A stretch of DNA of 64,000 nt from Dictyostelium discoideum. Its lineage: Eukaryota. The stretch spans positions 3,712,001 to 3,776,000 of the forward strand of contig CM000152.2 of NCBI GenBank assembly GCA_000004695.1, given 5' to 3'. Made by a program: the position numbers and the translations under genes. A model generated the notes under the pieces. That model did no database searches, was not told the origin of the DNA, and saw nothing but the letters and a program-made list of their open reading frames with translations. Each line of letters starts with the position of its first letter. Position 1 is the stretch's first letter. Below are positions 2,525-44,240 of this stretch, one piece after another.

Positions 2525-3565
2525 ATTTTTTTTTTTTATTTTTTAATATCAAAATTTTTTTTTTTTTCTCCTATCACTTTCAGACTTTCCAAAGTGATTT
2601 ATTGTTTTTTTTCTCTCACAAATAAATTTTTTTTTTCAGTTTGGCATTTTTTTTTATTTTTTTAATTTAATTTTTTTTTTTTTTTTTTTTAATTTAATTA
2701 ATTTTTTTAAAATTTATTTATCACAAAAAAAACACACAACACTAAACAAATAATCATTCATATAAAAACAAAAATAAAAATAAAAATAAAAAATTAAAAA
2801 TAAATACCCCGTTTATAAATTGGTTATTTTATTTTATTTTATTTTTTTTTATTCTTAACAAAGGTAAAAAAATCCAAAAAAAAAAAAAAAAAAAAAAAAA
2901 AATTAAAAAAAATTAAAAAAAATTAAAATTTTTTTTTTTTTTTTATTTTTTAAAAAAAAAATATATTTTATTAATTTTTGTTAAAGTTTTCCAAGATACC
3001 TATCACCCACACACTTACAACTACTACTACTACTACTACTACAACAATATTACTATTACTATTACTTTTTCCACATAATCAAAAATAAAAATAAAAATAA
3101 AAATAAAAAAATAAAAAAAATAAAAATAAAACAAACGCAAACATAAACCACAAATCAAATTTTTTAAAAAATAAATTATTAATAAATAATAAAATTTTAA
3201 AAATAAAAAAAAAAAAGATTAAAATAGTAATAATAGTATAGGGTTATATATATTATTATTATTATTTTTTACATATAACAATAATCATAAAATCACTAAA
3301 AGCATTCATAATAATTATACAAGACTCATTTTTAAAATAATATTTATTTATTTATACTAATATCAATAAAAAACAATAATAATATTAGTAGTACAGTAAT
3401 ATCAAGTAATAAACATAACAAAAAAAAAGAAAAAGAAAAGATTTTCTTTTTTAAAAAAAAAAAACCAAATTTAAAAGTTAATATTTAAAAGAAAAAATTA
3501 AAAAAAAGAGAGAAAGAGAGGAATAAACAAGGAAAATAAAAAAAAAAAAAAGCATATAGTTGTAA

Positions 3566-6000
3566 ATGGATAATGCAACTGTAGAACGAAAAACTATTAA
3601 AGCAACTAGGATAACCTTTTCACCAGGTGCAAAGGTCGGAGGTGGGGTTTATTCAATAGGGGCAAGATGGGGTCATGCTAGTATATCACAAGGTAAAAGA
3701 ATTTTAGTATTTGGTGGTCAAGGTGAATCATTATATTCAAATACTTCTGTATATGATCCAGTTACAAGTGTTTGGTCAGAAGTTAATACAGTAGATAAAG
3801 GTCCATCTGGTAGATATGGTCATACAGCAACCCTCCTAGAGGACATAAATGATCCAAATAATCAAAGAGTTATGATTTTTGGTGGTAAAAGTGGTAAAAA
3901 ATATTTAAATGATTTATTTTCTTTAAATTTAAGTGAGTATTTCAAAAAAAAAAAAAAACAAACAGAAAGAAAAAAAAAAAAAAAAAAAAAAAAATTAAAT
4001 ATTAATACTCTTTTTTTTTTTATTTTTTAAAAATAAAAGGAACAATGTCATGGAGTACATTTCATTTTGAAAAATCAACATTACCAGATTCTAGAGCTGG
4101 TCATACAAGTACATATGTACCACCAATTAATATTAATGGTTCTCTTAGAATGGTTGTATTTGGAGGAAGTCATTCAGATAAATATTTAAATAGTTGTTTT
4201 ATATTGGATTTACCAAAATCACAAGCAGGTACAATTAAGTGGATAAAACCACAAATCAAAGGTAAAGCACCATCACAACGTTCAGGTCATACTGCAGACT
4301 ATTTGAAGGATAGAAATTCAATTTTAATATTTGGTGGATTTGATGGTAGAAAATCATTCAACGATTTACATTTACTCAATATGACCGATATGAGCTGGAC
4401 AGCCGTTAAAACCAATGGTACAACACCAACCACTAGAAATGGTCACACCTCTGTTTTAGTGGGCGGTAGATATTTGGTTTTCTATGGTGGTTGTAGTGAA
4501 AGTAATGTTTCAAATGATATACAGATTTTAGATACTGATAGTTTCACTTGGTTATCACAACCAATGATAACTGGTTTAATTTTATTTCCACGTTTTAATC
4601 ATTCATCAAATTTATTAGATTCAGGTGAAATGATTGTATTTGGAGGTTGTGCTTCTGGTGTATTATATAGCGACATGTGTTCTTTAGATTTAAAATTATT
4701 TTTACCAACACCACCACCACCAACACCAACTAGAAATTTATCAATACAACAATCATCATCACCAATTTCAACTCCAACCACTACTACCACCACCACCACC
4801 ACTACGACCACATCAACAGGAGGAAATTCCGCCACACCACAATATTCAATTGAACATTTATCACAACAATCACAAACTACAACACCAACACCTTTATCAC
4901 CAATGACTGCAAGTACTTGTGGTTCTTGTCAACATCATCAACATCATAATTATCCACATAATATTAATCCGGTATCAGCATCATTGCCAACTACACCATC
5001 ATCAATTCATGTTAATAATGCATCACTTGTAAATACAAATTTATTATCAATACAATTATCAAATGCTTTGTCATTATTAAACTCTGAACAAACTCAAAAA
5101 ACCAGTTTATCCGATGAATTGATGAAAACAAAAAATGAAAGAGCGGAAGCATTTAGAAATGCAATGGAAGAACAATCAAAGATTGAAACACTAGAGAAAG
5201 AGTTGAACAAAATCGAAAATGCCTACAAGAAAGAACTCACACAAAAGAACAAAGTACAAGATTCTCTTCAAAAGATTTCCTCTACACTCAAAGAAAAGGA
5301 AACAATCATTCAATCATATCAAGAGATTATGAGTCAATTAAAATATAATTTAAAGGATTCATCATTAATGGATAAAAAAGATTCTGCCATTGTTCAACTA
5401 CTTTATCAATTTTCGTCAATAACAAATAATTGTGTTGGTAGTAGTAGTGGTGGTAGTAGCAGTAGTAATAATAGCGGCGCTGGAGGTAGTATTAATCCAA
5501 CAGAGAATATATTGTTGGTAAAAGAAACCATTGTAAATAAGTCATTAGAGATTCAATTGGAGGAATTGAAAAAGGAAAATCAAAAATTAAAAGAAAATTC
5601 AACAAATAATCAAACAAAATTATTAGAGTACGATTTAATTAAGCAAACCATTACCAATAGGATACAGATAGAAGCTGTTTCAGTTGATAATCTTTTAGGA
5701 GATAAATTGGATTCACTCGAGATGAAAGACCTTGACAAGTTGGAAGAACTCTACCATAACGTTTTAAAGAAAGTTGGTTCCGCCAAACAAGATCTACTTC
5801 AAAAACAACTATTAAAAATGCAAAGAGAAAAAGAAGAAAGTGCTGCAAATGGCAATGGTAAAACTTGTGTTGTTTGTGTTGATCTTTTAATTAATACCGT
5901 ATTAGTACCTTGTAGACATAGTTGTATATGTAGTACTTGCTCAAAGAAATTATCACTTTGTCCACTTTGCAGAACCCCAATTAAAGATGTTATTGAATAT

Positions 6001-6038: not shown

Positions 6039-6299
6039 AAAAACCAAAACAAAACAAAAAAAACCGATCAAATTACTAATTAAGTTAATTAATAATCATT
6101 TTGTAAATAATAAAATCTAAAAATAAATAAAAATTATTTTTTTAAAATTAAATTAAATTTTGTTTTTTTTTTTTATTTCTTTTGTTTTAAAATTATCTGG
6201 GATATTTTCAAATTCCAACTGGGAAAATAAAATTTTTATAAAAATAATTTTTTTTATCATTTTTTTTTTTATTTTTTTATTTTTTTTTTATAATATGAA

Positions 6300-7568
6300 A
6301 TGGAAGTTGATCAATTAATAAAATGGAGAAGAGAATTACATTCATTTCCTGAACTTGGATGGACAGAATTTGTTACAACATCAATATTAGTTAGAGAATT
6401 AAAATTAATGGGATATGAACCATTATTAGGTGAATCAATAATTAATACAAAATTTGTAAGAGGTAGAAAGAAAGATGATGTTGAAAAAGCAATTAAAATG
6501 GCAATTGATAAAGGAGTTGATAAAGAATTATTGGATAAAATGAATGGATTTACTGGATGTGTCGCAATTTATGATTCAGGAAAACCAGGTCCAACTGTTT
6601 CATTAAGATTTGATATTGATTGTGTTGGTGTTCAAGAGACTGATAATGAAAATCATTTACCATTAATCAATGGTTTCAAATCAAAAAATCAAAATCAAAT
6701 GCATGCATGTGGTCATGATGGTCATATGACAATTGGTTTAGGTATTGCAAAATGGTTAAAACAACAACAAGAGAATTCATTATGTGGTCGTGTTAAATTA
6801 TTATTTCAACCAGCAGAAGAAGGTGTAAGAGGTGCACAAGCAATGGCAGAAAGTGGAATTGTTGATGATTGTAGTTACTTTTTAGCCTCACATATTGGTT
6901 TTATAGCAAAGAGTGGTGAAGTTGTTGTGAACCCCTCTAATTTCCTTTGTACAACTAAATATGATTTTAGATTTAAAGGTTTATCAAGCCATCCTGGTAA
7001 AGATCCACATGTTGGTATAAATGCATTGGCTGGTTGTTGTACTGCCGCTACTCAATTATTAGCAATTCCAAGACATGGTAAAGGTATGTCACGTATTAAT
7101 GTTGGAGTAATTCGTGCGGGTGAAGCTAGAAATGTAATACCAGCCTATGGAGAATTACAAGTTGAAGTTAGAGGTGAAACTGAAGAAATCAATACTTTTA
7201 TGTGTCAACAAGCAGAGAGATTAGTAAAAGGTGTTGCATTAGGATATGGATTGGATTTAGAAATTGAAATTATGGGTGAAGCCGTAGATTTAACAAATGA
7301 TAAAGAAATGGTTCAATTACTATCAGATGTTTCAAAATCAAATAATCAAACCGTTATTGAACAACGTTCATTTGGTGGTAGTGAGGATGCAACTATTTTA
7401 GGTCGTAGAGTACAAAAAATTAATAATGGAAAAGCAATTTACTTTGTCTTGGGTTCTGATTTAAAAGGTACTCATCATCAATCTGATTTTGATTTTGATG
7501 AATCAATTTTACCAATTGGTGTTAAAATTTATACTGATTGTTTGTTAAAATTAATTTCTAAAAAATAA
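6300..7568 (+). CDS. Peptidase M20D-family amidohydrolase (aminoacylase / hippurate-hydrolase / ILR1-like)
   Basis: A single 422-aa ORF with a genuine ATG at 6300. It carries the metal-binding motif 'MHACGHDGHMTIGLG' and the overall N-terminal 'ELHSFPELGWTEF' architecture typical of M20D amidohydrolases. Confidence 0.75.
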   Translation: MEVDQLIKWRRELHSFPELGWTEFVTTSILVRELKLMGYEPLLGESIINTKFVRGRKKDDVEKAIKMAIDKGVDKELLDKMNGFTGCVAIYDSGKPGPTVSLRFDIDCVGVQETDNENHLPLINGFKSKNQNQMHACGHDGHMTIGLGIAKWLKQQQENSLCGRVKLLFQPAEEGVRGAQAMAESGIVDDCSYFLASHIGFIAKSGEVVVNPSNFLCTTKYDFRFKGLSSHPGKDPHVGINALAGCCTAATQLLAIPRHGKGMSRINVGVIRAGEARNVIPAYGELQVEVRGETEEINTFMCQQAERLVKGVALGYGLDLEIEIMGEAVDLTNDKEMVQLLSDVSKSNNQTVIEQRSFGGSEDATILGRRVQKINNGKAIYFVLGSDLKGTHHQSDFDFDESILPIGVKIYTDCLLKLISKK

Positions 7569-7732
7569 AAATAAAATAAATATTGGAATTCAATTAATGT
7601 GTCAATTTTTAAAATCTTAAAATGAAAAATTATAGTTTAAAATATTAGTCAATAAAATAAAAATAAAATAAAAATTAAAAAAATGTTGATAAATTTATTG
7701 TTTTGTAATATTAATGATAATTTATTAGTTTG

Positions 7733-8516
7733 TTATAATGGATCAACTATAACTTTCTTCTTTTTCTTTTTATCATTGTCTGGCTTTTTATAACAACTAC
7801 AACAAACATTGAGGAAATTTATAATATAAAATCCAATTAAAAAGAAAATATCCATTCCTGCTGCACCTCTTAATAATACGAATATTTCTCTATTTGTTTT
7901 ATACTAATAAAAATATAATTTTAATATTAATATAAATGAAATAATTAAAATTTGTTTTTATTTTTTTTTATTTTTTTTCAAAAAGTATACTTACACATTC
8001 AGTATATTCAGTACCTTTTCTTAAGAATTCACAAATGATGAAGATTACAACTGAAATACCAGTATATAAAAAGAAAGAACTTAAACCACAATCTGATACT
8101 ACTGTAACACAATGTCTTGGTTTCTTAATTAACATTGTTTTATGAAAGTATAAACTATATAATAAATTACCAATGAATAAAAATATATATATAATTAAAA
8201 ATGTACCAATGAATGAACAATTCGATTGCCATCTAACACCTGTTAATATAATTAATGATAATAACATTGGAACATTTACAAAGAATGAAAATAAATAAAT
8301 CCATGGAAATGGTCTAAATTTAAAATATAAATAAATTTTTTTTTTTTTTTTAATATTAGTAAATTTATTAAAATTATTTTTAATTTTATTATAAATATAT
8401 TACCTTTTACTTTTGAACCATCTTACAAATTTATTTCTTTTATATCCACTTTTAACTCTATCAATTCTCTCCTCCCATTTTTTTTCATCTACAAATTCTA
8501 ATTCATTGTTTACCAT
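7733..8516 (-). CDS. Predicted small multi-pass membrane protein of about 200 aa, function unknown. Three exons: 8516..8404, 8313..7995 and 7903..7733.
   Basis: I derived the exons by hand. Exon 1 is 'MVNNELEFVDEKKWEERIDRVKSGYKRNKFVRWFKSK' and ends at a GTAATA donor. Exon 2 enters after 'tttag' in phase 2 and gives PFPWIYLF...GTEYTEC before a GTAAGT donor. Exon 3 enters after 'ttag' and gives YKTNREIFVLLRGAAGMDIFFLIGFYIINFLNVCCSCYKKPDNDKKKKKKVIVDPL* to the stop. The introns are 85-90 nt and AT-rich, and the protein has 3-4 hydrophobic helices. I recognise no family. Confidence 0.45.
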
Positions 8517-8548
8517 TTTTAACTGTAACCTTTTGAATTGTTTTTTTT

Positions 8549-8584
<36 letters not shown>

Positions 8585-9617
8585 TACTTTTTTAAAAAAA
8601 GATTGATTTTTTTCTTTTTTGTTTTGTTTTCTTTTGATATAAAAAGTATTTTATTAAAAAATAAATAAATTGTAAAAATTAAATAAACAATTTTAAAATT
8701 TGATTATAATTGTCAAGATAAAATTTTAAAAAAATAAAAAACTAACAATAAATATTTAAATAAATAAATCCTATTAATAATATTTTATTATTAATATTAA
8801 TAAATAATAAAAATTAAAAGAAAGAATTCTTTTTATTTATTTTTAAATTTTTTTTTTTTTTTTTTTTAATATTTTTTAAAAATATGAATTAAATAAAGGT
8901 ACATATAATATGATTTATATTTTTTTTTTTTTTTTTTTTTTGTCTTTTTTTTTATTCTATATGTATATTATTAAAAATTGGTATTTATTATTATTATTAT
9001 TTTTATTTATTTTGTAATAATATATGTCTGCCCATTGAAAAATTTCTTATAAGTTTTATTAATCATAGTACAAGAACACACACACACACACTAAACCATT
9101 CGAATAAAATAATAATAACTATTGCATAAATTAATCTCTGATATTTCTCAGACCACACATACACACACTTTTAAAAAATATTTTTTAAAATAAATAATAA
9201 ATGAATACCACACAAACACAAGTATCATTAATTATTATTTTATTTTATTTTTGTTGTTTTAAATATATTTAAAACTAAATTTTAATGTGCATTTATTAAT
9301 GTGCCCATATGGTACACACACTACCCACACCTAAAAATAGTTTAGTTCTAAATTTGTATGAATTTCTATTTTAGTAGTTAAATGTGCTCTTTACTAGTTT
9401 TTTGTTTTTGGTTCTTTTTTTTTTTTTTTTTTTCTTTGATTAAAATAAACACAAATTATATCTTATATATGACCTTTTTTTTTAAAAATAAAAAATATCT
9501 TTTCATGATTTTTTTTTTTTTTTTTTTTTTTTCGATATTTTCTTTGTTTGAAAAAAAAAAATTCTATGTTATTTGTATGTGTGTGTGTGTTAATAGTTTT
9601 TTTTTTTTTTTTTTTTT

Positions 9618-27362: not shown

Positions 27363-27978
27363 AAGGGTGGGTTAGTGAAAACAATCACAAAAAAAAAAAA
27401 AAAAAAAAAATTAATTTAAATATTGATTTAAAAAAAATAAAAAAAAAAATAAAAAAAAAATAAAAAAAAAAAATAAATTTTTATTGTAAATAGTTAAATG
27501 ACCATTTTTAATTTTTTTATTTATTGTATTTTGTAAATTAACAAAAAAAAAAAAAAAAAATTTTCACAAAAAATTTTAAACTTTTTTTGATCCATTTTTA
27601 CCAGCACCATTCCCCATCTCAATTTATCACAATCTTGATCCATTTTTTTTTTTTTAAAACAATAAAAATAATAATACTAATAATAATAATAGTGGTAATA
27701 ATAACAGTAGTATTGTTAATAAAAAATATTGTTAATAAAATAAAAAATAAAAAATAAAAAAAAAAAAATTAATTAATGTGAAAATATCAGGAGGGGTTTT
27801 TTTTTTTTTATTTTTTTTTTATTTTTTTTAAAAAAATTATTTCATCATTCATTAGTTATTGGTACAATATCAATGAAAAATGAAATAAATTGATAACATG
27901 ATAAGATCATATTTTTATAAAATCAATATTAATGAAAGCTATATATGTTGTAATTATAGGTACTATGCACAAAGTAAA

Positions 27979-28353
27979 ATGACAAAAAAAGGTAGTTCTA
28001 ATAGTAGTAAACAACAGCAACAGCAACAGCAAATAATAATTAACAATAATGCAAAAGTTGACGAACCAATAATAAAAATTAATGTAAATGTTCACCCAAA
28101 TTCCAAAGAATCATCAATAGTATCATTTGAAGATCAAATATTATCACTAAGAATCTCTGAACCACCAATAGATGGTAAAGCAAATATTGGAGTTATAGAA
28201 TTCCTTTCAAAAGAATTAAATATTAGAAAGAGTAATATTGAAGTTGGTAAAGGTTCAAAGTCTAGAAATAAATCTGTAGAAATTGATATTTCAAGTGAAA
28301 ATATAACAAAAGATGAATTATTTGAAAGAATTAAAAGTAAATTAAATAATTGA
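27979..28353 (+). CDS. YggU / DUF167 (UPF0235) family protein
   Basis: '...IKINVNVHPNSKESSIVSFEDQILSLRISEPPIDGKANIGVIEFLSKELNIRKSNIEVGKGSKSRNKSVEI' matches the YggU family consensus (the V.P.AK...I pattern, LKIRLTAPPVDGKAN, G..SR.K.V.I). I place the start at MTKKGSSNSS, ATG at 27979, because the track's 27898 start is a non-ATG codon. Confidence 0.65.
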   Translation: MTKKGSSNSSKQQQQQQQIIINNNAKVDEPIIKINVNVHPNSKESSIVSFEDQILSLRISEPPIDGKANIGVIEFLSKELNIRKSNIEVGKGSKSRNKSVEIDISSENITKDELFERIKSKLNN

Positions 28354-28762: not shown

Positions 28763-29352
28763 TTATTTTAATTTTAATATTTTCATTTTTAAAGAATTTT
28801 TATCTTTTGCAGAGAAATCAATAAAATCTATTAATAGATTTGATAGTTCAAAATTTAATGAATTTATTGATTTGACAACTATATCATTTAATAATTTTGA
28901 ATTAAATAATGACGATTGATTTGATTTAGTTTGAATTTTTAATAAATATTTACTGTTTTGATCGGATGATATTATGTTTTTAAATATTTGAGTGTAGCCT
29001 TTTTTAGATGCAATACAGAGACAATTATAAAGATAATTGATTGTATTATCATTTATATTTGCAATAAAATAATTGATAAATAATTCAAGGTAATAACTTG
29101 ATGATATACCATATATACAATATTCATTTGTAAAAATTGAAAAATAATCAGGATTAAATAAAACCTCTGGTAATTTATCAAAAAGATAAATAATATCATC
29201 AACTCTATCTAAATTGTAAAGACAAACTAATAACATTCTGATTGAAATTGTAAAATTGAATGATTCTGTTTTACCAATAGTTAAACATCCAACATCTTTA
29301 CTCTTTTTAGGTGATAAAAGATTTGCTGTGGTTGTTGTTGTTGTTGTTGTTT

Positions 29353-29386
<34 letters not shown>

Positions 29387-31681
29387 GGCTGTCAATGTGG
29401 TTGTGAGTTCAATTTTACTATTAATTTCTTCAAAGCTTTTATTATCAGTTTTTAAATTAATTACTTTTAACTTTGTTTCAATTGATTCTTTTGAAATATT
29501 ATTAAATAAAAACTTGATAAAAGTTAACATTTTACTTGTATATGGATTAAAACTAGATTCAAAAATTTCCAAACTCAATGGATGTTTTAATTGTGCATTT
29601 GATAAAAAGTTAATAATTGAATTTTCTTTGTTGTCTTTTATATTCGAATCAACTAGCCCTTCAGAAACAATATCAAAATAACCATCAAAACCAATTGAAT
29701 ATACTGATGGTTTTAAAATTGCTATATTTAATCGATCTAAAAAATTTTGATCAAACCAACGATAAAAATCTAATTTGCATCTTTTCCCAATACTATCCAT
29801 TAAATATTCATAATGTTCAATAAGTTCTAATTGAATTTGTTTCCAAATTTCATTTTGATCTTTAAAAAATAAACATTCATCCCTGTAATTTTGAAAATAA
29901 AAGTCTAATATTTCTTTTTTATCGATAAGATGACAATAATCGCCTATTAATTTACCAATGCTTGGATATTTAGTTATTTTTTGTGTTTGATTAAGTTGTA
30001 ATTGCTTTATTTTTTTTAAAAAATAATCTATTAACTCTATATCATTACTTGAAAATACTGCTTTAAAAAATATATAATGATCATATTCTTCAAAAGTTTT
30101 CACATATTTATTATCTAAAACATTTAATATTAATTCGAATTTTTCATTTTTTTCAATGTTTATATCTTTTAATATGCTTTGAAAAAATAATTGATGATCA
30201 AAACTTCTACCATTCCATTTATTGACAACACGCTCATACATTTTATCTACACTTTCTTTTTTAAAATTTAAATAATAGAGTAATGGTTTTCTAAAAAGCC
30301 TTTCATTTGCTGAATATACTGAGCAATAGAAAAATAAACAAATTGATTTATAAAATTTTTTAATAATATCTTTTAAATTAATATTATTACTTGCTGTAGA
30401 TGTTGTTATTGTTAAATTGGTTGTTGGGGTTAAGGTTAAGGTTAAGGTTGAGGTTGAGGTTGAGGTTGAGGTTGAGGTTGAGGTTGGAGTGGTATGATTT
30501 AATAAATTTTTAATTGTTGAATTTAATTGATCATTTGTAAATTGTGATGTTTGTATTTCATTTAATTCTAATATTTTTTGATTTAATTTTTCATAATACT
30601 TTTTATTATTAGGGTGTATTTTGATTTTTTCTTTTTGTTCTTGTTGTTCCATTCGTTCTTGTAAGTTTGTTGATTCTATTAATCTTTTATATGATTTTAT
30701 TAGTTTTTTAAATTTATTATCGAATGAAAGAAATGCTGATAAATCGGTGCTAATGAATGGCAATAATTTATGTGATGTTGGAATACTATTAATTGATTTT
30801 AAGTAATTGTAAATTTTTAATTTATCATATGTAGTATTACCAAAGACCGATGGTTTAACATGAATTTTTATAGCTTTTTTAATAACTTCTGAATCGATTT
30901 TAAAAAATTTGATAAATTGATCTAGTGCTGTAAAATTTACATTTTCAATCATTCTTTGAATCCATTTATCAATATCTTCATCGAATTGAATAGTTGAAGA
31001 TAGTTGTATTGGTAGTGAAGTTGAGGTTGATGAATATCTTGAAAATAATAAATTATAAAATGATCTTGTTTTCTCATCATTTTTTTTAAATTTATTAATA
31101 ATATTGGTAATATTGTATTTATTTCTTATTATTTGATTATTATTATTACTTTTAATATTATCTATAATTATTTCCATTGAATTACTTTTGCCATTTAAAA
31201 AGACTCCATTACAACCAATTAAATCATAATAACCATATTGTTTATTTTTAAAATTTGAAAATATGTGTTTAAATATTACTATATTTCTAAAAACTTTCCA
31301 AAAATAAATTTCAACTGGTTCAACATCTTTAAATGTTAATATATATTGTTTTTCTTGTGGTTGTGGTTGTTGTTGTTCCTCTTCTTTTTTTTCTTCTTGT
31401 TGATTGGTTTCATTATTTGTAAGATTGTTTTTTACTTTTTTTGATAAAAAATAACCTTCAATTCTATTATAGACTAATTGTTTTTTACCATTACTTGCTA
31501 AACCTAATGATTTTGCAATTATTTGTAATTCTCTGTAATTTGTTGAACCACTGTCAAAATCTTTTTTAAACTTTTTATAAGTTAATAAACCATTATCAAT
31601 GCCATCACTATCATCATCATCATTATCTTTTTCATGATGTCGATTAATATTTTCGATTTCTTTTCTTTTATTACTTATCAT
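28763..31681 (-). CDS. Paralog 1 of a tandem gene family: a 972-aa protein with an N-terminal SAP-like DNA-binding motif, Thr/Ser-Thr repeat tracts and a large uncharacterised helical C-terminal region
   Basis: A single ORF with an ATG at 31681. The N-terminal '[34 protein letters not shown]' fits the SAP motif pattern (L..L...A...GL...G.K..L..RI). The tracts (TS)n/(TL)n and T11KT8 are encoded by ACN codons. It is about 85-90% identical to the three downstream ORFs. Confidence 0.8.
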
Positions 31682-32077: not shown

Positions 32078-34888
32078 TTATTTTGATTTTAATATTTTCA
32101 TTTTTAAAGAATTTTTATCTTTTGCAGAGAAATCAATAAAATCTATTAATAGATTTGATAATTCAAAATTTGATGAATTTATTGATTTGACAACTATATC
32201 ATTTAATAATTTTGAATCAAATAATGATGATTGATTTGATTTAGTTTGAATTTTTAATAAATATTTACTGTTTTGATCGGATGATATTATGTTTTTAAAT
32301 ATTTGAGTGTAGCCTTTTTTAGATGCAATACAGAGACAATTATAAAGATAATTGATTGTATTATTATTTAGATTTTCAATAAAATAATTGATAAATAATT
32401 CAAGGTAATAACTTGACGATATACCATATATACAATATTCATTTGTAAAAATTGAAAAATAATCAGGATTAAATAAAACCTCTGGTAATTTATCAAAAAG
32501 ATAAATAATATCATCAACTCTATCTAAATTGTAAAGACAAACTAATAACATTCTGATTGAAATTGTAAAATTGAATGATTCTGTTTTACCAATAGTTAAA
32601 CATCCAACATCTTTACTCTTTTTAGGTGATAAAAGATTTGCTGTGGTTGTTGTAGTTGTGGCTGTCAATGTAGTTGTGAGTTCAATTTTACTTTTAATTT
32701 CTTCAAAGTTTTTATTATCAGTTTTTAAATTAATTACTTTTAACTTTGTTTCAATTGATTCTTTTGAAATATTATTAAATAAAAACTTGATAAAAGTTAA
32801 CATTTTGCCTTTATATGGATTAAAACTAGATTCAAAAAATTTCAAATCCAATGGATGTTTTAATTGTGCATTTGATAAAAAGTTAATAATTGAATTTTCT
32901 TTGTTATCTTTTATATTCAAATCAACTAGCCCTTCAAAAACAATATCAAAATAACCATCAAAACCAATTGAATATACCGATGGTTTTAAAATTGCTCTAT
33001 TTAATCGATCTAAAAAATTTTGATCAAACCAAGGAGTAAAATCTAATTTGCATCTTTTCCCAATACTATCCATTAAATATTCATAATGTTCAATAAGTTC
33101 TAATTGAATTTGTTTCCAAATTTCATTTTGATCATCAAATAATAAAGATTCGTCTCTGTAATTTTGAAAATAAAAGTCTAATATTTCTTTTTTATCGATA
33201 AGATTACAATAATTGCCTATTAATTTACCAATGTTAGGATATCTAGTTATTTTTTGTATTTTATTAGGTTGTTGCATTAATATTTTTAAAAAATAATCTA
33301 TTAGCTCTATATCATTACTTGAAAATACTGCTTTAAAAAATATATAATGATCATATTCTTTAAAAGTTTTCACATATTTATTATCTAAAACATTTGATAT
33401 TAATTCGAATTTTTCATTTTTTTCAATGTTTATATCTTTTAATATGCTTTGAAAAAATAATTGATGATCAAAACTTCTACCATTCCATTTATTGACAACA
33501 CGCTCATACATTTTATCTACACTTTCTTTTTTAAAATTTAAATAATAGAGTAATGGTTTTCTAAAAAACATTTCAGTTGCAGAATTGACTGTGCAATAGA
33601 AAAATAAACAAATTGATTTATAATATTTTTTAATAATTTCTTTTAAATTAATATTATTACTTGCTGTAGATGTTATTGTTAAATTGGGTGTTGAGGTTGA
33701 GGTTGAGGTTGGAGTGGTATGATTTAATAGATTTTTAATTGTTGAATTTAATTGATCATTTGTAAATTGTGATGTTTGTATTTCATTTAATTCTAAAATT
33801 ATTTGATTTAATTTTTCATAATACTTTATATTACTAGGATGTATTTTGATTTTTTCTTTTTGTTTTTGTTGTTCCATTCGTTCTTGTAAGTTTGTTGATT
33901 CTATTAATCTTTTATATGATTTTATTAGTTTTTTAAATTTATTATCGAATGAAAGAAATTTTGATAAATCGGTGCTAATGAATGGCAATAATGTATGTGA
34001 TGTTGGAAGACTATTAATTGATTTTAAGTAATTGTAAATTTTTAATTTATCATATGTAGTATTACCAAAAACCGATGGGTCAATATGAATTTTCATAACT
34101 TTTTTAATAACTTCTGAATCGATTTTAAAAAATTTAATAAATTGATCTAGTGCTGTAAAATTTACATGTCCAATCATTGCCTGAATCCATTTATCAATAT
34201 TTTCATCGAATTGAATAGTTGAAGAAGTTGATGTTGATGAATATCTTGAAAATAATAAATTATAAAATGATTTTGTTTTTTCATCATTTTTTTTAAATTT
34301 ATGAATAATATTGGCAATATTGATTTTATTTCTTATTATTTGATGATTATTATTACTTTTAATATTATCTATAATTATTTCCATTGAATTACTTGTGTCA
34401 TTTAAATAGGAACGATCACAACCTATTAAATCATAATAACCATATTGTTTATTTTTAAAATTTGAAAATATGTGTTTAAATATTACTATATTTCTAAAAA
34501 CTTTCCAAAAATAATTTTCAACTGGTTCAACATCTTTAAATGTTAATATATATTGTTTTTCTTGTGGTTGTGGTTGTTGTTGTTCCTCTTCTTTTTTTTC
34601 TTCTTGTTGATTGGTTTCATTATTTGTAAGATTGTTTTTTACTTTTTTTGATAAAAAATAACCTTCAATTCTATTATAGACTAATTGTTTTTTACCATTA
34701 CTTGCTAAACCTAATGATTTTGCAATTATTTGTAATTCTCTGTAATTTGTTGAACCACTGTCAAAATCTTTTTTAAACTTTTTATAAGTTAATAAACCAT
34801 TATCAATGCCATCACTATCATCATCATCATTGTCTTTTTCATGATGTCCATCAATAGTATCGATTTCTTTTCTTTTATTACTTATCAT
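32078..34888 (-). CDS. Paralog 2 of the same family (936 aa), SAP-like N-terminus retained
   Basis: The N-terminal 100 aa are near-identical to paralog 1. The Thr tracts are shorter ('[16 protein letters not shown]', '[12 protein letters not shown]'). The upstream flank (34890-35000) differs from that of paralog 1. Confidence 0.8.
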
Positions 34889-35629: not shown

Positions 35630-38581
35630 TTATTTTGATTTTATTATTTTCATTTTTAAAGTATTTTTATCTTTTTCTGAGAAATCAATAAAATCTATTA
35701 ATAGATTTGATAATTCAAAATTTAATGAATTTATTGATTTGACAACTATATCATTTAATAATTTTGAACTAAATAATGATGATTGATTTGATTTAGTTCG
35801 AATTTTTAATAAATATTTACTATTATGATCGGATGATATTATGTTTTTAAATATTTGAGTGTAACCTTTTTTAGAAGCAATACAAAGACAATTATAAAGA
35901 TAATTGATTGTATTATTATTTAGATTTTCAATAAAATAATTGATAAATAATTCAAGGTAATAACTTGACGATATACCATACAAACAATGTTCTTTTGTAA
36001 AAATTGAAAAATAATCAGGATTAAATAAAACTTCTGGTAATTTATCAAAAAGATAAATAATATCATCAACTCTATCTAGTCTGTAAAGACAAACTAATAA
36101 TATTCTAATTGAAACTGTAAAATTGAATGATTCTGTTTGGCCAATAATGAAAAATCCAACATCTTCACCTTTTTTAGCTGATAAAAGATTTGTTGCGGTT
36201 GCTGTTGTTCCTGTTGTGGTTGTTGTTGTGGTAGTTGTTGTGGTTGTCAATGTGGTGGTGAGTACAATTTCACTATTAATTTCTTCAAAGTTTTTATTAT
36301 CAGTTTTTAAATTAATTACTTTTAACTTTGTTTCAATAGATTCTTTTGAAATATTATTAAATAAAAACTTGATAAAAGTTAACATTTTACTTTTATATCG
36401 ATTAAAACTAGATTCTAAAATTGGAGAAACATATAATGGATGTTTTAATTGTGCATTTGATAAAAAGTGAATAATTGAATTTTCTTTGGAGTCTTCCGTA
36501 TTCGAATCAATTAGCCCTTTGAAAATAAAATTAAAATTAAAATTAATAGTGCCACGAAAATCAAAATAGTATAAGAGTGGTTTTGCAATTGTTCTATTTA
36601 ATCGATCTAAAAATTTTGAACTATCAAACCAACGGAAAATATCAAAATTGCATCTGTTTCCAATACTACCCGTTAAATATTCATAATGTTCAATAAGTCC
36701 TAATTGAATTCGTTTCCAAGTTTGATTTTGATCATTAAATAATAAACATTCATCTCTGTAATTTTGAAAATAAAAGTCTAATATTTCTTTTTTATCGATA
36801 AAATGACAATAATCGCTTATTAAACTACCAATAACTGGGAAGGTAGTTGTTTCTGGTGTTTGATTGAGTTGTTGTTGCTTTAATATTTTTAAAAAATAAT
36901 CAATTAACTCTATATCATTACTTGAAAATACTGCTTCAAAAAATATATGAAGATCTTTTAATTTAAAAGTTTTCACATATTTATTATTTAAAACATTTGA
37001 TATTAATTCGAATTTTTCATTTTTTTCAATTTTTATATCTTTAAATATTCTTTGAAAAAATAATTTATGATCAAAATTACTACCATTCCATTTTTTGATA
37101 ACATGCTCATACATTTTATCTACCCTTTCTTTTTTAAAATATAAATAATAAAGTAATGGTTTTCTAAAAATAGTTTTATTTGCTGAATTAATTGTGAAAT
37201 AAATAAATAAATAAATTGATTTATAATATTTTTTAATAATTTCTTTTAAATTAATATTATTGTTGTTATTGTTAGTGCTGCTGTAATTACTTTCTGTAGA
37301 TATTATTGTGAGATTGGTTGTTTTTAATGATGTTGAGGTAGAGGTAGAGGTTGAGGTATATGTAGATGTAGAGGTTGAGGTTGAGGTTGAGGTTGAGGTT
37401 GGAGTGGTATGATTTAATAATTTTTTAATTGTTGAATTTAATTGATAATTTGTAAATTGTGATGTTTGTATTTCATTTAATTCTAATATTTTTTGATTTA
37501 ATTTTTCATAATACTTTTTATTAGGATGTATTTTAATTATTCCTTGTTTTTCTAGTTGTTCTTGTTGTTCTTGTAAGTTTGTTGATTCTATTAATCTTTT
37601 ATAAGATTTTATAAGTTTTTTAAATTTATTATCGAATGAAAGAAGTGTTGAAAAATTGATGCTAATAGTTGATAATAATGTATGTGATGTTGGAATACTA
37701 TTAATTGATTTTAAGTAATTGTAAATTTTTAATTTATCATATGTAGTATTACCAAAGAATGATGGATCAATATGAATTTTTATAGCTTTTTTAATAACTT
37801 CTGAATCGATTTTAAAAAATTTAATAAATTGATCTAGTGCTGTGTAATTTACATTTTCAATCATTCTTTGAATCCATATATCAATATTTCCATCGAATTG
37901 AATAGTTGAAGGTAGTTGTGTTGATGGTGAAGTTGATGTAGATGAATATCTTGAAAATAATAAATTATAAAATGATCTTGTTTTTTCATCGTTTTTTTTA
38001 AATTTATTAATAATGTCTATAATATTGCTTTCATTTCTTATTATTTGATGATTATAGCTTTTTATATTATCTATAATTATTTCCATTGAATTACTTTTTC
38101 CATTTAAAAGGATTTCATCACAACCTATTAAATCATAATAACTGTATTGTTTACTTTTAAAATTTGAAAATATGTGTTTAAATATTACTATATTTCTAAA
38201 TATTTTCCAAAAATAAATTTCAACTGGTTCAACATCTTTAAATGTTAATATATATTGTTTTTCTTGTGGTTGTGGTTGTTGTTGTTCTTTTTTTTTTTCT
38301 ACTTGTCGATTGGTTTCATTATTTGTAAGATTGTTTTTTACTTTTTTTGATAAAAAATAACCTTCAATTCTATTATAGACTAATTGTTTTTTACCATTAC
38401 TTGCTAAACCTAATGATTTTGCAATTATTTGTAATTCTCTGTAATTTGTTGAACCACTTTCAAAATCTTTTTTAAACTTTTTATATGTTAATAAACCATT
38501 ATCAATGCCATCACTATCATCATTATTTTTTTCATGATGTTCATTAATAGTATCGATTTCTTTTCTTTTATTACTTATCAT
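35630..38581 (-). CDS. Paralog 3 of the same family (983 aa), SAP-like N-terminus retained
   Basis: Same architecture as paralogs 1 and 2, with the longest repeat tracts ('[24 protein letters not shown]', '[22 protein letters not shown]'), and more diverged from them in the C-terminal third. Confidence 0.8.
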
Positions 38582-39747: not shown

Positions 39748-42420
39748 TTATTTTAATTTTAATATTTTCATTTTTAAAGTATTTTGACCGTTTGCTGAGA
39801 AATCAATAAAATCTATTAATAGATTTGACAATTCAAAATTTAATGAACTTATTGATTTATCAACTATGTCATTTAATAGTTTTGAATCAAATAATGATGA
39901 TTGATTTGATTCAGTTTGAATTTTTAATAAATATTTACTGTTTTGATCGGATGATATTATGTTTTTAAATATTTGAGTGTAACCTTTTTCAGATGCAATA
40001 CAAAGACAATGATAAAGATAATTGGTTGTATCATTTAGATTTGCAATAAAATAATTGATAAATAATTCAAGGTAATAACTTGACGATATACTATATATAC
40101 AATATTCTTTTGTAAAAATTGAAGAATAATAAGATTTTAAAAAAACTTCTGGTAATTTATCAAAAAGATAAATAATATCATCAACTCTATCTAGTTTGTA
40201 AAGACAAACTAATAACGTTGTAATTGAAATTGTAAAATTGAATGATTCTGTTTTACCAATAGTTAAACATCCAACATCTTCACTTTTTTTAGGTGATAAA
40301 AGATTTGTTGCGGTTGTCAATGTAGTGGTGAATTCAATTTTACTATATTTTTCTTCAAAGTTTTTATTATCAGTTTTTAAATTAATTACTTTTAACTTTG
40401 TTTCGATTGATTCTTTTGAAATATTATTAAATAAAAACTTGATTAAAGTTAACAATTTGGCTGCATATGGACTAAAACTAGATCCTAAAATTTCCAAATC
40501 CAATGGTTGTTTAAATTGTGCATTTGATAAAAAGTTAATAATTGAATTTTCTTTGTTGTTATTTATATTCGAATCAATTAACCATTTAAAATCACTACTA
40601 CTACCACCAAAATCAATAGAATATACCAATGGTTTCATAATTGCTCTATTTAATCGATCTAAGAAATTTAAATTTTTATACCAATAAATAAAATCTAATT
40701 TGCATCTGTTTCCAATACTACCCGTTAAATATTCATAATGTTCAATAAGTTCTAATTGAATATATTTGCAATTTTCATTTTGATCATTAAATAATAAACA
40801 TTCATCTCTGTAATTTTGAAAATAAAAGTCTAATATTTCTTTTTTATCGATAAGATGACAATAATCGCATATTAATTTACCAATGCTTGGATATTTTGTT
40901 ATTTCTGGTATTTGATTAAGTTGTAATTGTTTTATTTTTTTTAAAAAATAATCTATTAACTCTATATCATTACTTGAAAATACTGCTTTAAAAAATATAT
41001 AATGATCATATTCCCTAAAAGTTTTCACATATTTATTATCTAAAACATTTAATATTAATTCGAATTTTTCATTTTTTTCAATGTTTATATCTTTTAATAT
41101 GCTTTGAAAAAATAATTTATGATCGAAACTACTGCCATTCCATTTATTGACAACACGCTCATACATTTTATCTACACTTTCTTTTTTAAATTTTAAATAA
41201 TAAAATAATCCTTTTCTAAAAACCCCTTTATTTTCAGGTTTAACTGTAAAATAAAAAAATAAATAAATTGATTCATAATATTTTTTAATAATATCTTTTA
41301 AATTAATTTTATTGTTGCTGTTGATGTTGTTGTGATTGTGATTGTTATTGTTGTTGTAGTTGCTTTCTGTAGATATTATTGTAAGATTGGTTGTGGTTGT
41401 TGTTGTGGTTGTTGTTATTGAAGTTGAGGTTGGAGTGGTATGATTTAATAAATTTTTAATTGTTGAATTTAATTGATCATTTGTAAACTGTGATGTTTGT
41501 ATTTCATTTAATTCTAATATTTTTTGATTTAATTTTTCATAATACTTTTTATTATTAGGATGTATTTTCAATTTTCCTTGTTTTTCTTGTTGTTCTTGTT
41601 GTTCTTGTAAGTTTGTTGATTCTATTAATCTTTTATATGATTTTATAAATTTTTTAAATTTATTATCGAATGAAAGAAATATTTCTAAATCGGTATTAAT
41701 GAATGGTAGTAATTTATGTGATGTTGGAAGACTATTAATTGATTTTAAGTAATTGTAAATTTTTAATTTACCATATGTAGTATAACCAAAGAATGATGGT
41801 TTAATATGAATTTCCATAACTTTTTTAATAGCTTCTGAATCGATTTTAAAAAATTTAATAAATTGATCCAGTGCTGTACAATTTACATTTTTAATCATTC
41901 TTTGAATCCATTTATCAATATTTTCATCGAATCGAATAGTTGAAGATAGTTGTATTGGTGAAGTTGATCCTGACGAATATCTTGAAAATAATAAATTATA
42001 AAATGATCTTGTTTTTTCATCATTTTTTTTAAATGTATGAATAATGTCTATAATATTGCTTTCATTTCTTATTATTTGATGATTATTATTGCTTTTAATA
42101 TTATCTATAATTATTTCCATTGAATTAGTTCTGCCATTTAAAAAAAAGATTTCATCACAACCTATTAAATCATAATAACCATATTGTTTACTTTTAAAAT
42201 TTGAAAATATGTGTTTAAATATAAATATATTTCTAAAAACTTTCCAAAAATAAATTTCAACTGGTTCAACATCTTTAAATGATAATATACATTGTTTTTT
42301 TTGTTGTTGTTGTGGTTGTTCTTCTTTTTTTTTTTCTTGTTGATTGCCATTATCATGATTATAGTCTTTTTCATGATGTTCATTAATATTATCGATTTCT
42401 TTTCTTTTATTATTTACCAT
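39748..42420 (-). CDS. Paralog 4 of the same family (about 890 aa), with the SAP-like N-terminal region missing
   Basis: The homologous Met is '[20 protein letters not shown]', ATG at 42420. The track ORF extends to 42570 only through lysine-rich read-through of the poly(A) 5' flank. Relative to paralogs 1-3, about 70 aa containing '[58 protein letters not shown]' are absent between 'HHEKD' and the 'EEQ...QQQ...[23 protein letters not shown]' segment that follows the deleted block. Confidence 0.7.
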
Positions 42421-42823
42421 TTTTAAAAGAAAAGAAATTTTAGTTTGATTTTGTTTTAAAAAAAAAGCCTTGTCGAAAGTTATTGTTTTTTTATTGTAAA
42501 CGGTGCAAATTCGAACTTTCAAAAGTTTTTTCAATTTTTTTTTTTTATTCATTTTTTTTTTTTTTTTCATTTTCTTTTTTTCCCCACCGATAATAATAAC
42601 GGATAATAACTTTTAATATATTAATTACAACCTTTATACTACAGTTTTTTTTTTTGTCTACTAAAATCATTGATGATTTTAAAACAATAGCTTTCAACTA
42701 TTGTAAAGGGTGTGACCCTCCAGTCTCGGGTGATCATGATATCGAAAAAAAAAAAAATTCATTACAATCTTTTGTGTAAACTCTCATCTTAAAGCGAACA
42801 AACAAACCACAAGTTTATAAAGT

Positions 42824-44240
42824 TTAAATAAAATTGGAAATAGTATTTGTAGTGGTGTTGAATAGAGAAAACAGTAGAAAAGCTAATTCGCATCTTTTTC
42901 CAATACTACCCATTAAATATTCATAATGTTTAATAAGTCCTAATTGAATATTTTTCCAATTTTGATTTTGATCATTAAATAATAAACATTCATCTCTGTA
43001 ATTTTGAAAATAAAAGTCTAATATTTCTTTTTTATCAACAAGACGACAATAATCTCCTATTATTTTTAGTCTTTGATTATTAAGTTGTTGTTGTTGTAAT
43101 TGCTTTATTTTTTTAAAAAAACAATCAAATAAATCTACATCATTACTTGAAAATATAAAAAATATATATAAAAATATATAAAAAAAAATGATTATCACTA
43201 ACTTGCAATGGTTTCCATTTGATTTTATCAAAACAATTTGATATTATTCTAATCTCTCATTTTTTTCAATGTTTATATCTTTTAATATGCCTTGAAAAAA
43301 TGATTGATGATCAAAATAAATACCATTCCATTTATTGATAACACCTTGATACATTTTATCTACCCTTTCTTTTCTAAAATAAATAATAGTATATTGGCTT
43401 TCTAATATATCTTTTATATAATTGAACTGTGCAATTAAAAAATAAACAAATTGATTTAATATATTTTTTAATAATATTAATTTTGTTGTTGTTTTCTTCT
43501 GTAGTTATTGCCGTTGAAGTCGAGGTTGAGTTTGGGGTTGAGGTTGAAGTTGTAGTGGTAAGTTATATAATAAATTTTAATTGTTGAATTTAATTGATCA
43601 TTTGTAAATTGTGATGTTTGTATTTCATTTAATTCTAAAATTATTTGATTTAATTTTTCATAATACTTTTTATTATTAGGATGCATTTTTAAATTTTCTT
43701 CTTGTTTTTGTTGTTCTTGTTCTTGTAAGTTTGTTGATTCTATTAATCTTTCATATGATTTTATAAGTTTTTTAAATTTATTGTCGAATGAAAGGAATCC
43801 TTGTAAATCTGCATTAATGAATGGTAATAATATATGTGATGTTGGAAGACTATTAATTGATTTTAAGTAATTATAAATTTTTAATTTGTCATATTTAGAA
43901 CTACTATAGAAAAAAGGATTAATATGAGTTTCTATAACTATTTTAATATCTTCTGAATTGATATTAATAAAATTAATAAATTGATCTAGTGCTATGCAAT
44001 TTACACTTTCAATCATTCTTTTAATCCATATATCAATATTTTCATTGAATCGAATAGTTGAGGATAGTTGTGTTGATGGTGAAGTTGATGTTGATTAATA
44101 TCTTGAAAATAATAAATTATAAAATGATCTTGTTTTTTCATCATTTTTTTTAAATTTAATAAAAATGTTGATAATATTTCTTTCATTTCTTATTATTTGA
44201 TGATTATTATTACTTTTAATATTATCTATAATTATTTCAA
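42824..44240 (-). pseudogene. Decayed fifth copy of the tandem family. It is truncated at both ends and carries a nonsense mutation, internal deletions and frameshifts.
   Basis: The 44060-44240 segment translates to '[50 protein letters not shown]...', where TCA>TAA at the position of paralog-1 'SRYSSTST'. ORF 43477..44016 corresponds to '[26 protein letters not shown]...NDQLNSTIK'. The 43232-43476 stretch is nucleotide-homologous to paralog-1 30120-30400 but is out of frame. ORF 42824..43231 corresponds to the '[20 protein letters not shown]...[17 protein letters not shown]' region. There is no SAP region and no C-terminal third. Confidence 0.75.

Follow-up and report, generated by a model that had tools for sequence, protein, structure and literature searches.

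The loss of domains by paralogs after tandem duplication is a common and general phenomenon. One such case is found in Dictyostelium discoideum AX4, in a window of 64,000 nucleotides (nt) from chromosome 3 (assembly GCA_000004695.1, contig CM000152.2, positions 3,712,001 to 3,776,000 of the forward strand), the G+C content of which is ~20%. The window harbours four tandem minus-strand open reading frames (ORFs) of 890-983 codons, which share 78-92% amino acid identity and are termed paralogs 1-4 or c1-c4 (Table 1). The fourth, DDB_G0280811, is a UPF0746 protein without the N-terminal module that in c1-c3 resembles the SAP domain, a domain known from SAF-A/B, Acinus, PIAS, Ku70, DEK, MKL1 or Hcc-1 (PF02037/PF18953). 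We consider it likely that c4 is a SAP-less member of the UPF0746 family, which originated through one 183-bp in-frame genomic deletion and was then retained.

Like other paralogs that have lost a domain, c4 is devoid of a terminal, linker-flanked module, which was lost in frame, and the remainder of the protein is retained under purifying selection. The case differs from others in that its breakpoints are base-precise and the event is common to five assemblies, in the contrasting fates of the shortened gene (an intact ORF in D. discoideum, a pseudogene in D. cf. discoideum), and in a second, seemingly independent SAP loss in the homologous array of D. dimigraforme. In common with the UPF0746 family, c4 keeps the N-terminal M-x-N-KRKEI tail, the IFSNFK motif and an α-helical body of ~850 residues. 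It differs from the family by the absence of a 61-codon SAP module, which is present in the other intact D. discoideum-group members examined, in paralogs of 49% identity and, among the three intact copies of D. dimigraforme, in two. Taken as a whole, this is a well-documented but ordinary case of a tandem array that evolves by birth and death and in which one copy has lost a domain; it leaves current understanding unchallenged.

Pairwise global nucleotide alignments place the breakpoints of the c4 deletion to the base: GATAATGG is joined directly to CAATCAACAAG at window positions 42347/42346 (minus strand). Taking 183 nt out of c1, c2 or c3 recreates this junction exactly, save for one synonymous base, and the block missing from c4 corresponds to the 61 codons L32-T92 of c1. 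In addition, c4 is shorter in the neighbouring low-complexity tracts, namely by 6 codons in the acidic/poly-Asp tract and by 2 codons in the Q/P tract, both of which also vary in length among the other copies. The net shortfall thus amounts to 69 amino acids compared to c1 and c2, and to 66 compared to c3. Beyond the junction the reading frame is preserved, and the other ~850 codons are open and collinear with the paralogs. These alignments bear out a sequence-only reading of the window, which had noted by eye that c4 skips the roughly 70 residues carrying the SAP motif in copies 1-3, while the rest of the protein stays intact and in frame. A microhomology-mediated deletion between two ATAATG motifs was considered as the underlying event and dropped, since its predicted junction differs from that of c4.

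The sequence-only reading had further ascribed the upstream reach of the c4 ORF, to position 42570, to a lysine-coding poly(A) run, and this explanation holds: the A-rich 5' leader is open by chance. In two further D. discoideum assemblies, L001 (GCA_054859355.1) and L002 (GCA_054859385.1), an in-frame TAA directly precedes the c4-equivalent ATG, and the leader contains indels. Translation from the ATG at 42420 yields 890 amino acids that match XP_641030.2/UniProt Q54UV7 exactly; the public gene model starts there as well, and the N-terminal MVNNKRKEI is homologous to the own start of the paralogs. The start codon and blocks of the 5' leader are conserved among the isolates compared. Hence, the true start of c4 is 42420, and the poly-K extension is a non-conserved artefact.

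The assignment of the missing block as a SAP-like module is well supported. The N-termini of c1-c3 match the Pfam model SAP_new25 with expectation values (E) of 1.7e-5 to 2e-4 (21-25 bits, below the cut-off of 26.3) and the Pfam SAP model PF02037 with E values of 0.001-0.017 (15-19 bits, below the cut-off of 23.9). Among the SAP-bearing N-termini, 9/9 match both models, the best E values being 3.9e-9 (SAP_new25) and 3.7e-7 (PF02037). The block is the most conserved N-terminal part among paralogs of 49-55% overall identity; residues L52, L59, L61, G65, K66, K67, R73 and I74 are invariant, and a profile of the block matches PDB entry 2rno_A (“putative DNA-binding protein”) across the LGLP..GKKQ core with an E value of 0.031. 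An AlphaFold 2 model of residues 28-95 predicts three helices at a predicted local distance difference test (pLDDT) score of 82. In the predicted full-length structure of c1 (pLDDT 70.7), the module occupies residues 33-83, its helices reach to 89, and the pLDDT is 66-78; for its flanks, residues 1-32 and 84-122, the score falls below 50, as expected for disordered linkers. Given these limits in the c1 model, the deletion of residues 32-92 would take out nearly the entire folded unit and hardly anything beyond it.

The predicted fold of the module in copies 1-3, a helix-extended loop-helix, resembles that of solved SAP domains. Superposition on the latter gave the following figures, one per domain: Hcc-1, 5.2; MKL1, 4.9; E1B-AP5, 4.8; DEK, 4.7; Ku70, 4.5; FAN1, 4.2; PIAS1, 4.1; SLX4, 4.1; and SF3B2, 4.0. 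The c1-c3 module shares with SAP domains the pattern L..L....LGL...GKK..L..RI and the predicted helix-loop-helix. It differs from them by an extra short helix before the motif, by a long second helix and by its connection to a lineage-specific helical body without a significant fold match in the PDB. Judged by this likeness, the SAP module would confer DNA binding on c1-c3, and c4 would lack this property.

Two versions of events would make the absence of SAP from c4 something other than a loss. Either the module was gained by c1-c3 or spread among them by gene conversion, or the gap is an artefact and the SAP segment of c4 lies in an upstream exon. The former receives some support from the 5' ~450 nt of c1-c3 (31232-31681, 34439-34888 and 38132-38581), which are 95-100% identical at the nucleotide level and thus well above the rest of the genes (78-94% for c3 versus c1 and c2); in the SAP segment, c1 and c2 agree in 230/230 nt. 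This high 5' identity therefore indicates gene conversion at the SAP end, in a tract that does not include c4; in other parts of the genes, identity peaks in a mosaic fashion, which suggests additional conversion between copies. Against a gain stands the distribution of the module. SAP is present in D. discoideum paralogs of 49% identity (P0007-9; precomputed PF02037 matches), in a D. dimigraforme homolog of ~55% identity (P0006) and in the more distant dictyostelid members P0015, P0017, P0021, P0024 and P0028; it is absent from the distant members P0026, P0029 and P0030, the gene models of which are unverified. In neighbour-joining trees based on 720-757 ungapped columns, c4 and two orthologs form a clade with 100% bootstrap support, which is nested among SAP-bearing genes. 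Because SAP occurs in distant paralogs and the SAP-less clade is nested in this way, the state of c4 is a loss rather than a gain, and the module is ancestral in the family.

An upstream exon or a different frame, which the sequence-only reading had itself named as the place where a SAP segment might turn up, was searched without success. Within the window, neither tblastn (word size 2, E≤1000) nor blastn (word size 7) detected a remnant of the SAP block outside c1-c3 in any frame; the best non-self tblastn hit had an E value of >3, and only low-complexity noise was recovered. In particular, there is no SAP-like coding between c4 and the next gene fragment, and the 890-residue c4 protein gives no Pfam SAP match even at E values up to 1. 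The in-frame stop that immediately precedes the ATG in other isolates, the homology of the c4 start to that of the paralogs and the recurrence of the same junction in five independent assemblies speak against an artefact as well. Either version, gain or artefact, is thus hardly credible.

The c4 junction recurs in a second D. discoideum assembly (P0004, which differs by 2 amino acids) and, at the syntenic position, in L001 and L002, which share 94-97% identity with AX4 in a flanking single-copy gene. An intact SAP-less ORF of ~890 codons is found in four D. discoideum assemblies (AX4, P0004, L001 and L002). The fifth occurrence is in D. cf. discoideum (L003, GCA_054859205.1), where the c4 ortholog at 2685-4892 carries the identical SAP-less junction. 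Since the junction is shared across lineages, the deletion is older than their separation and no assembly artefact; it took place a single time, prior to the split between the D. discoideum lineages and D. cf. discoideum. In this way, a junction defined at base level across assemblies dates the event. The D. cf. discoideum ortholog is a pseudogene, which is disrupted by a poly-A frameshift, through which a Q-run has become a T-run, by the loss of 25 nt and by an internal ~450-nt deletion, which corresponds to c4 nt 767-1218. Because of this pseudogene, a c4-type gene must be dispensable in at least one lineage.

The decay in D. cf. discoideum raises the question of whether c4 itself is a non-functional relic, i.e., a young pseudogene that was inactivated by the loss of SAP and has yet to acquire disabling mutations. 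In favour of this notion, only fragments remain of the fifth AX4 copy, other isolates contain disrupted family members, and a ratio of nonsynonymous to synonymous differences per site (pN/pS, omega) of ~0.43 does not denote strong constraint. On the other side, the ~890-codon ORFs have remained intact in four assemblies that differ by ~5% in flanking DNA, and conservation extends to the start codon and to blocks of the 5' leader. The pN/pS of the SAP-less clade is 0.43-0.46 by the Nei-Gojobori method and 0.26-0.29 by YN00, significantly below 1 in the two comparisons involving AX4 (binomial P 1.3e-5 and 3.3e-6) and no higher than that of the SAP-bearing paralogs (0.44-0.66 and 0.26-0.34, respectively). 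Moreover, in a neutral simulation, in which half of the observed pairwise substitutions were placed at random (substitutions only, ignoring indels), ~5 stop codons arose on average per lineage, and the ORF stayed open in 0.6% of trials. The intact ORFs, the low pN/pS and the rare neutral survival together thus indicate protein-level selection on c4 in D. discoideum, where the shortened gene is kept as an ORF under purifying selection. A relic is, by these comparisons, improbable.

A retained product of a single deletion therefore remains the preferred account of c4, and several points weigh against it. The ortholog with the identical junction was pseudogenised in D. cf. discoideum; constraint is only moderate (omega 0.43-0.46; YN00 0.26-0.29) and typical of a fast-evolving family; birth-and-death turnover and mosaic gene conversion can blur orthology as well as dN/dS estimates (the ratio of nonsynonymous to synonymous substitution rates); and the Pfam SAP scores of c1-c3, at 15-25 bits, lie under the curated cut-offs of 23.9 and 26.3.

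In mechanistic terms, the single 183-bp deletion would have excised a ~60-residue N-terminal helix-loop-helix SAP module from between two disordered low-complexity linkers, sparing the N-terminal tail, which is short and basic (M-x-N-KRKEI), and the ~850-residue α-helical body. The body may act as an interaction scaffold, which in c1-c3 would be tethered by SAP to AT-rich DNA or chromatin. In c4, the function of the body, probably protein-protein interaction, would then be carried out in an untethered state. A SAP-less copy maintained by selection provides a ready comparison between the contribution of the SAP tether and that of the helical body alone. The body is modelled as mostly α-helical and solenoid-like, with a small β region at around residues 756-813. 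No consistent Pfam match to the body was obtained with the full proteins and 22 family members, apart from a weak Ank_5 match in three members only, and a Foldseek search of the PDB with the full-length model returned nothing at E≤1e-3, only generic α-solenoids with template modelling (TM) scores of 0.1-0.2.

The sequence-only reading had taken the clean in-frame deletion as a sign of neofunctionalisation rather than decay. The second half of this proposal stands, given four intact ORFs and a pN/pS below 1. The first half is not supported by the comparisons made, in which the retained part of c4 shows no accelerated or positively selected change after the loss of SAP. Tajima relative-rate tests with two outgroups revealed no acceleration of c4 compared to c1 or c2 (p 0.20-0.77), and equivalent tests none for its orthologs in L001 and L002 (p 0.26-0.90); in the one nominally significant test, c4 versus c3 (p 0.02), c3 is the faster gene. 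Only nine positions have fixed residues that distinguish the SAP-less clade from every SAP-bearing copy of the D. discoideum group. In its rate of evolution and in the constraint acting on it, the body of the SAP-less lineage matches that of its SAP-bearing neighbours.

These results also bear on a more specific form of the proposal, for which the sequence-only reading had named a non-DNA-binding or dominant-negative variant and according to which c4 was selected as an antagonist: a dominant-negative or decoy body that binds c1-c3 or their partners without being tethered and thereby titrates their activity. Such a role would agree with a body that is fully retained and under purifying selection and with a folded module cleanly excised from intact linkers. 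It would also agree with the second, independently SAP-less intact ORF in the homologous D. dimigraforme array, which, along with the SAP-less distant members P0026, P0029 and P0030, suggests a recurring pairing of tethered and untethered forms. Yet the c4 lineage shows neither acceleration relative to c1/c2 nor more than the nine fixed differences, there is no sign that the body oligomerises, and D. cf. discoideum has lost the ortholog. Furthermore, the SAP-less copy of D. dimigraforme may be drifting, and the SAP-less N-termini of the distant members may be gene-model errors. Antagonism is therefore an unlikely explanation, if a less far-fetched one than a relic.

The D. dimigraforme copy is an intact SAP-less family ORF of 926 amino acids, which starts with MMDNLTSSEQKK and is located at 6879-9659 of L004 (GCA_054859025.1). 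Its homology to the family sets in again at DNL.xSE, a motif that immediately follows SAP; in c4, homology does so only 9 codons later. A deletion shared with c4 was rejected for this gene, as it keeps 9 right-side codons that c4 lost and lacks left-side codons that c4 keeps. The copy groups with those of its own species, a grouping to which concerted evolution could contribute. Most simply, the breakpoints and the grouping suggest that SAP was lost in D. dimigraforme independently of c4. The omega of this copy versus its paralogs is 0.68-0.80, consistent with a gene that may be drifting. A stretch of its 5' leader (..KKEID..) may be left over from the ancestral N-terminus.

The c4 lineage, the D. 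dimigraforme copy with its different breakpoints and possibly the distant SAP-less members might represent repeated excisions of SAP from the same arrays. It is conceivable, and slightly less likely than antagonism of c4 as such, that this repetition reflects selection for a pair of tethered and untethered proteins, the SAP-less one being an antagonist or an off-chromatin partner. If true, the pair would belong to a fast-evolving, dictyostelid-specific chromatin-associated system.

The UPF0746 family is small and restricted to dictyostelids: of 1.84 billion representative proteins, only 23 were matched at E≤1e-3. It evolves by birth and death. Between 42878 and 44226, a fifth copy persists in pieces, as a pseudogene from which both ends, the SAP-coding one among them, are gone. 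These fragments are 88-89% identical at the nucleotide level to an intact SAP-bearing copy in L001 (2915-5746).

Table 1. Features of the UPF0746 array, with positions in the 64,000-nt window.
Feature	Positions	Strand	Description
Paralog 1 (c1)	28763-31681	-	972 amino acids, SAP-bearing
c1 block matching the c4 deletion	31407-31589	-	Whole SAP-like module; predicted helices 35-41, 49-58, 67-79/92
Paralog 2 (c2)	32078-34888	-	936 amino acids, SAP-bearing
c2 SAP block	34614-34796	-	Surrounding 230-nt segment 34599-34828 100% nucleotide-identical to c1
Paralog 3 (c3)	35630-38581	-	983 amino acids, SAP-bearing
c3 SAP block	38313-38495	-	Surrounding segment 38298-38526 97.8% identical to c1
Paralog 4 (c4), DDB_G0280811	39748-42420	-	UPF0746 protein, 890 amino acids, SAP-less copy
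A-rich 5' leader of c4	42421-42570	-	Non-coding; mechanically lengthens the ORF
Fifth-copy fragments	42878-44226	-	Only c1 residues 174-391 and 473-639 (tblastn)

Regarding annotation, UniProt Q54UV7 is labelled “UPF0746 protein DDB_G0280811”, and c4 belongs to this family by full-length homology, being 78-82% identical to c1-c3 over ~880 aligned residues. The full 936 amino acids of c2 match P0001, which NCBI lists as “SAP DNA-binding domain-containing protein” and UniRef as “UPF0746 protein”; the NCBI name for the SAP-less c4 is only “hypothetical protein”. A search of the full-text literature for DDB_G0280811, UPF0746, Q54UV7 or the neighbouring gene identifiers returned nothing relevant. 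DDB_G0280811 is annotated already, yet unstudied. In a collection of 15 billion proteins, c4 is found exactly and c2 as P0001, but neither c1 nor c3, as translated from the simple ORF, has an exact entry. The public AX4 gene models of c1 and c3 may differ from the simple ORFs or be absent.

Further rearrangements were observed in the L001 array. A disrupted family copy at 6061-8716 has the segment for residues 28-207 inverted, and the left edge of this inversion lies within a few codons of the left edge of the c4 deletion. Between two ...IIAK motifs of the inverted piece, 162 nt are missing through a separate deletion, and the second half of SAP is lost with them. The c3 ortholog in L001 (15064-17612) is without its first ~258 codons, including SAP, and is located beside a transposase gene. 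Transposase genes are found directly downstream of the SAP-less gene in L001 (12993-14500, minus strand, rve/rve_3) and in L002 (13032-14079, minus strand, DDE_Tnp_4); no counterpart was seen in the AX4 window.

At its c1 end, the array is bordered by a small plus-strand gene of 151 amino acids (27898-28353). The counterparts of this gene in L003 and L004 carry the Pfam domain PF02594 (PF1765-like), and the array border is thus conserved across species. Opposite the Thr-run region of each paralog lies a plus-strand antisense poly-Val ORF (29256-29681, 32571-32954, 36123-36470 and 40238-40687); these ORFs are artefacts of ACA/ACT repeats and no genes. The length of the Thr/Ser-Thr repeat itself varies markedly among the paralogs.

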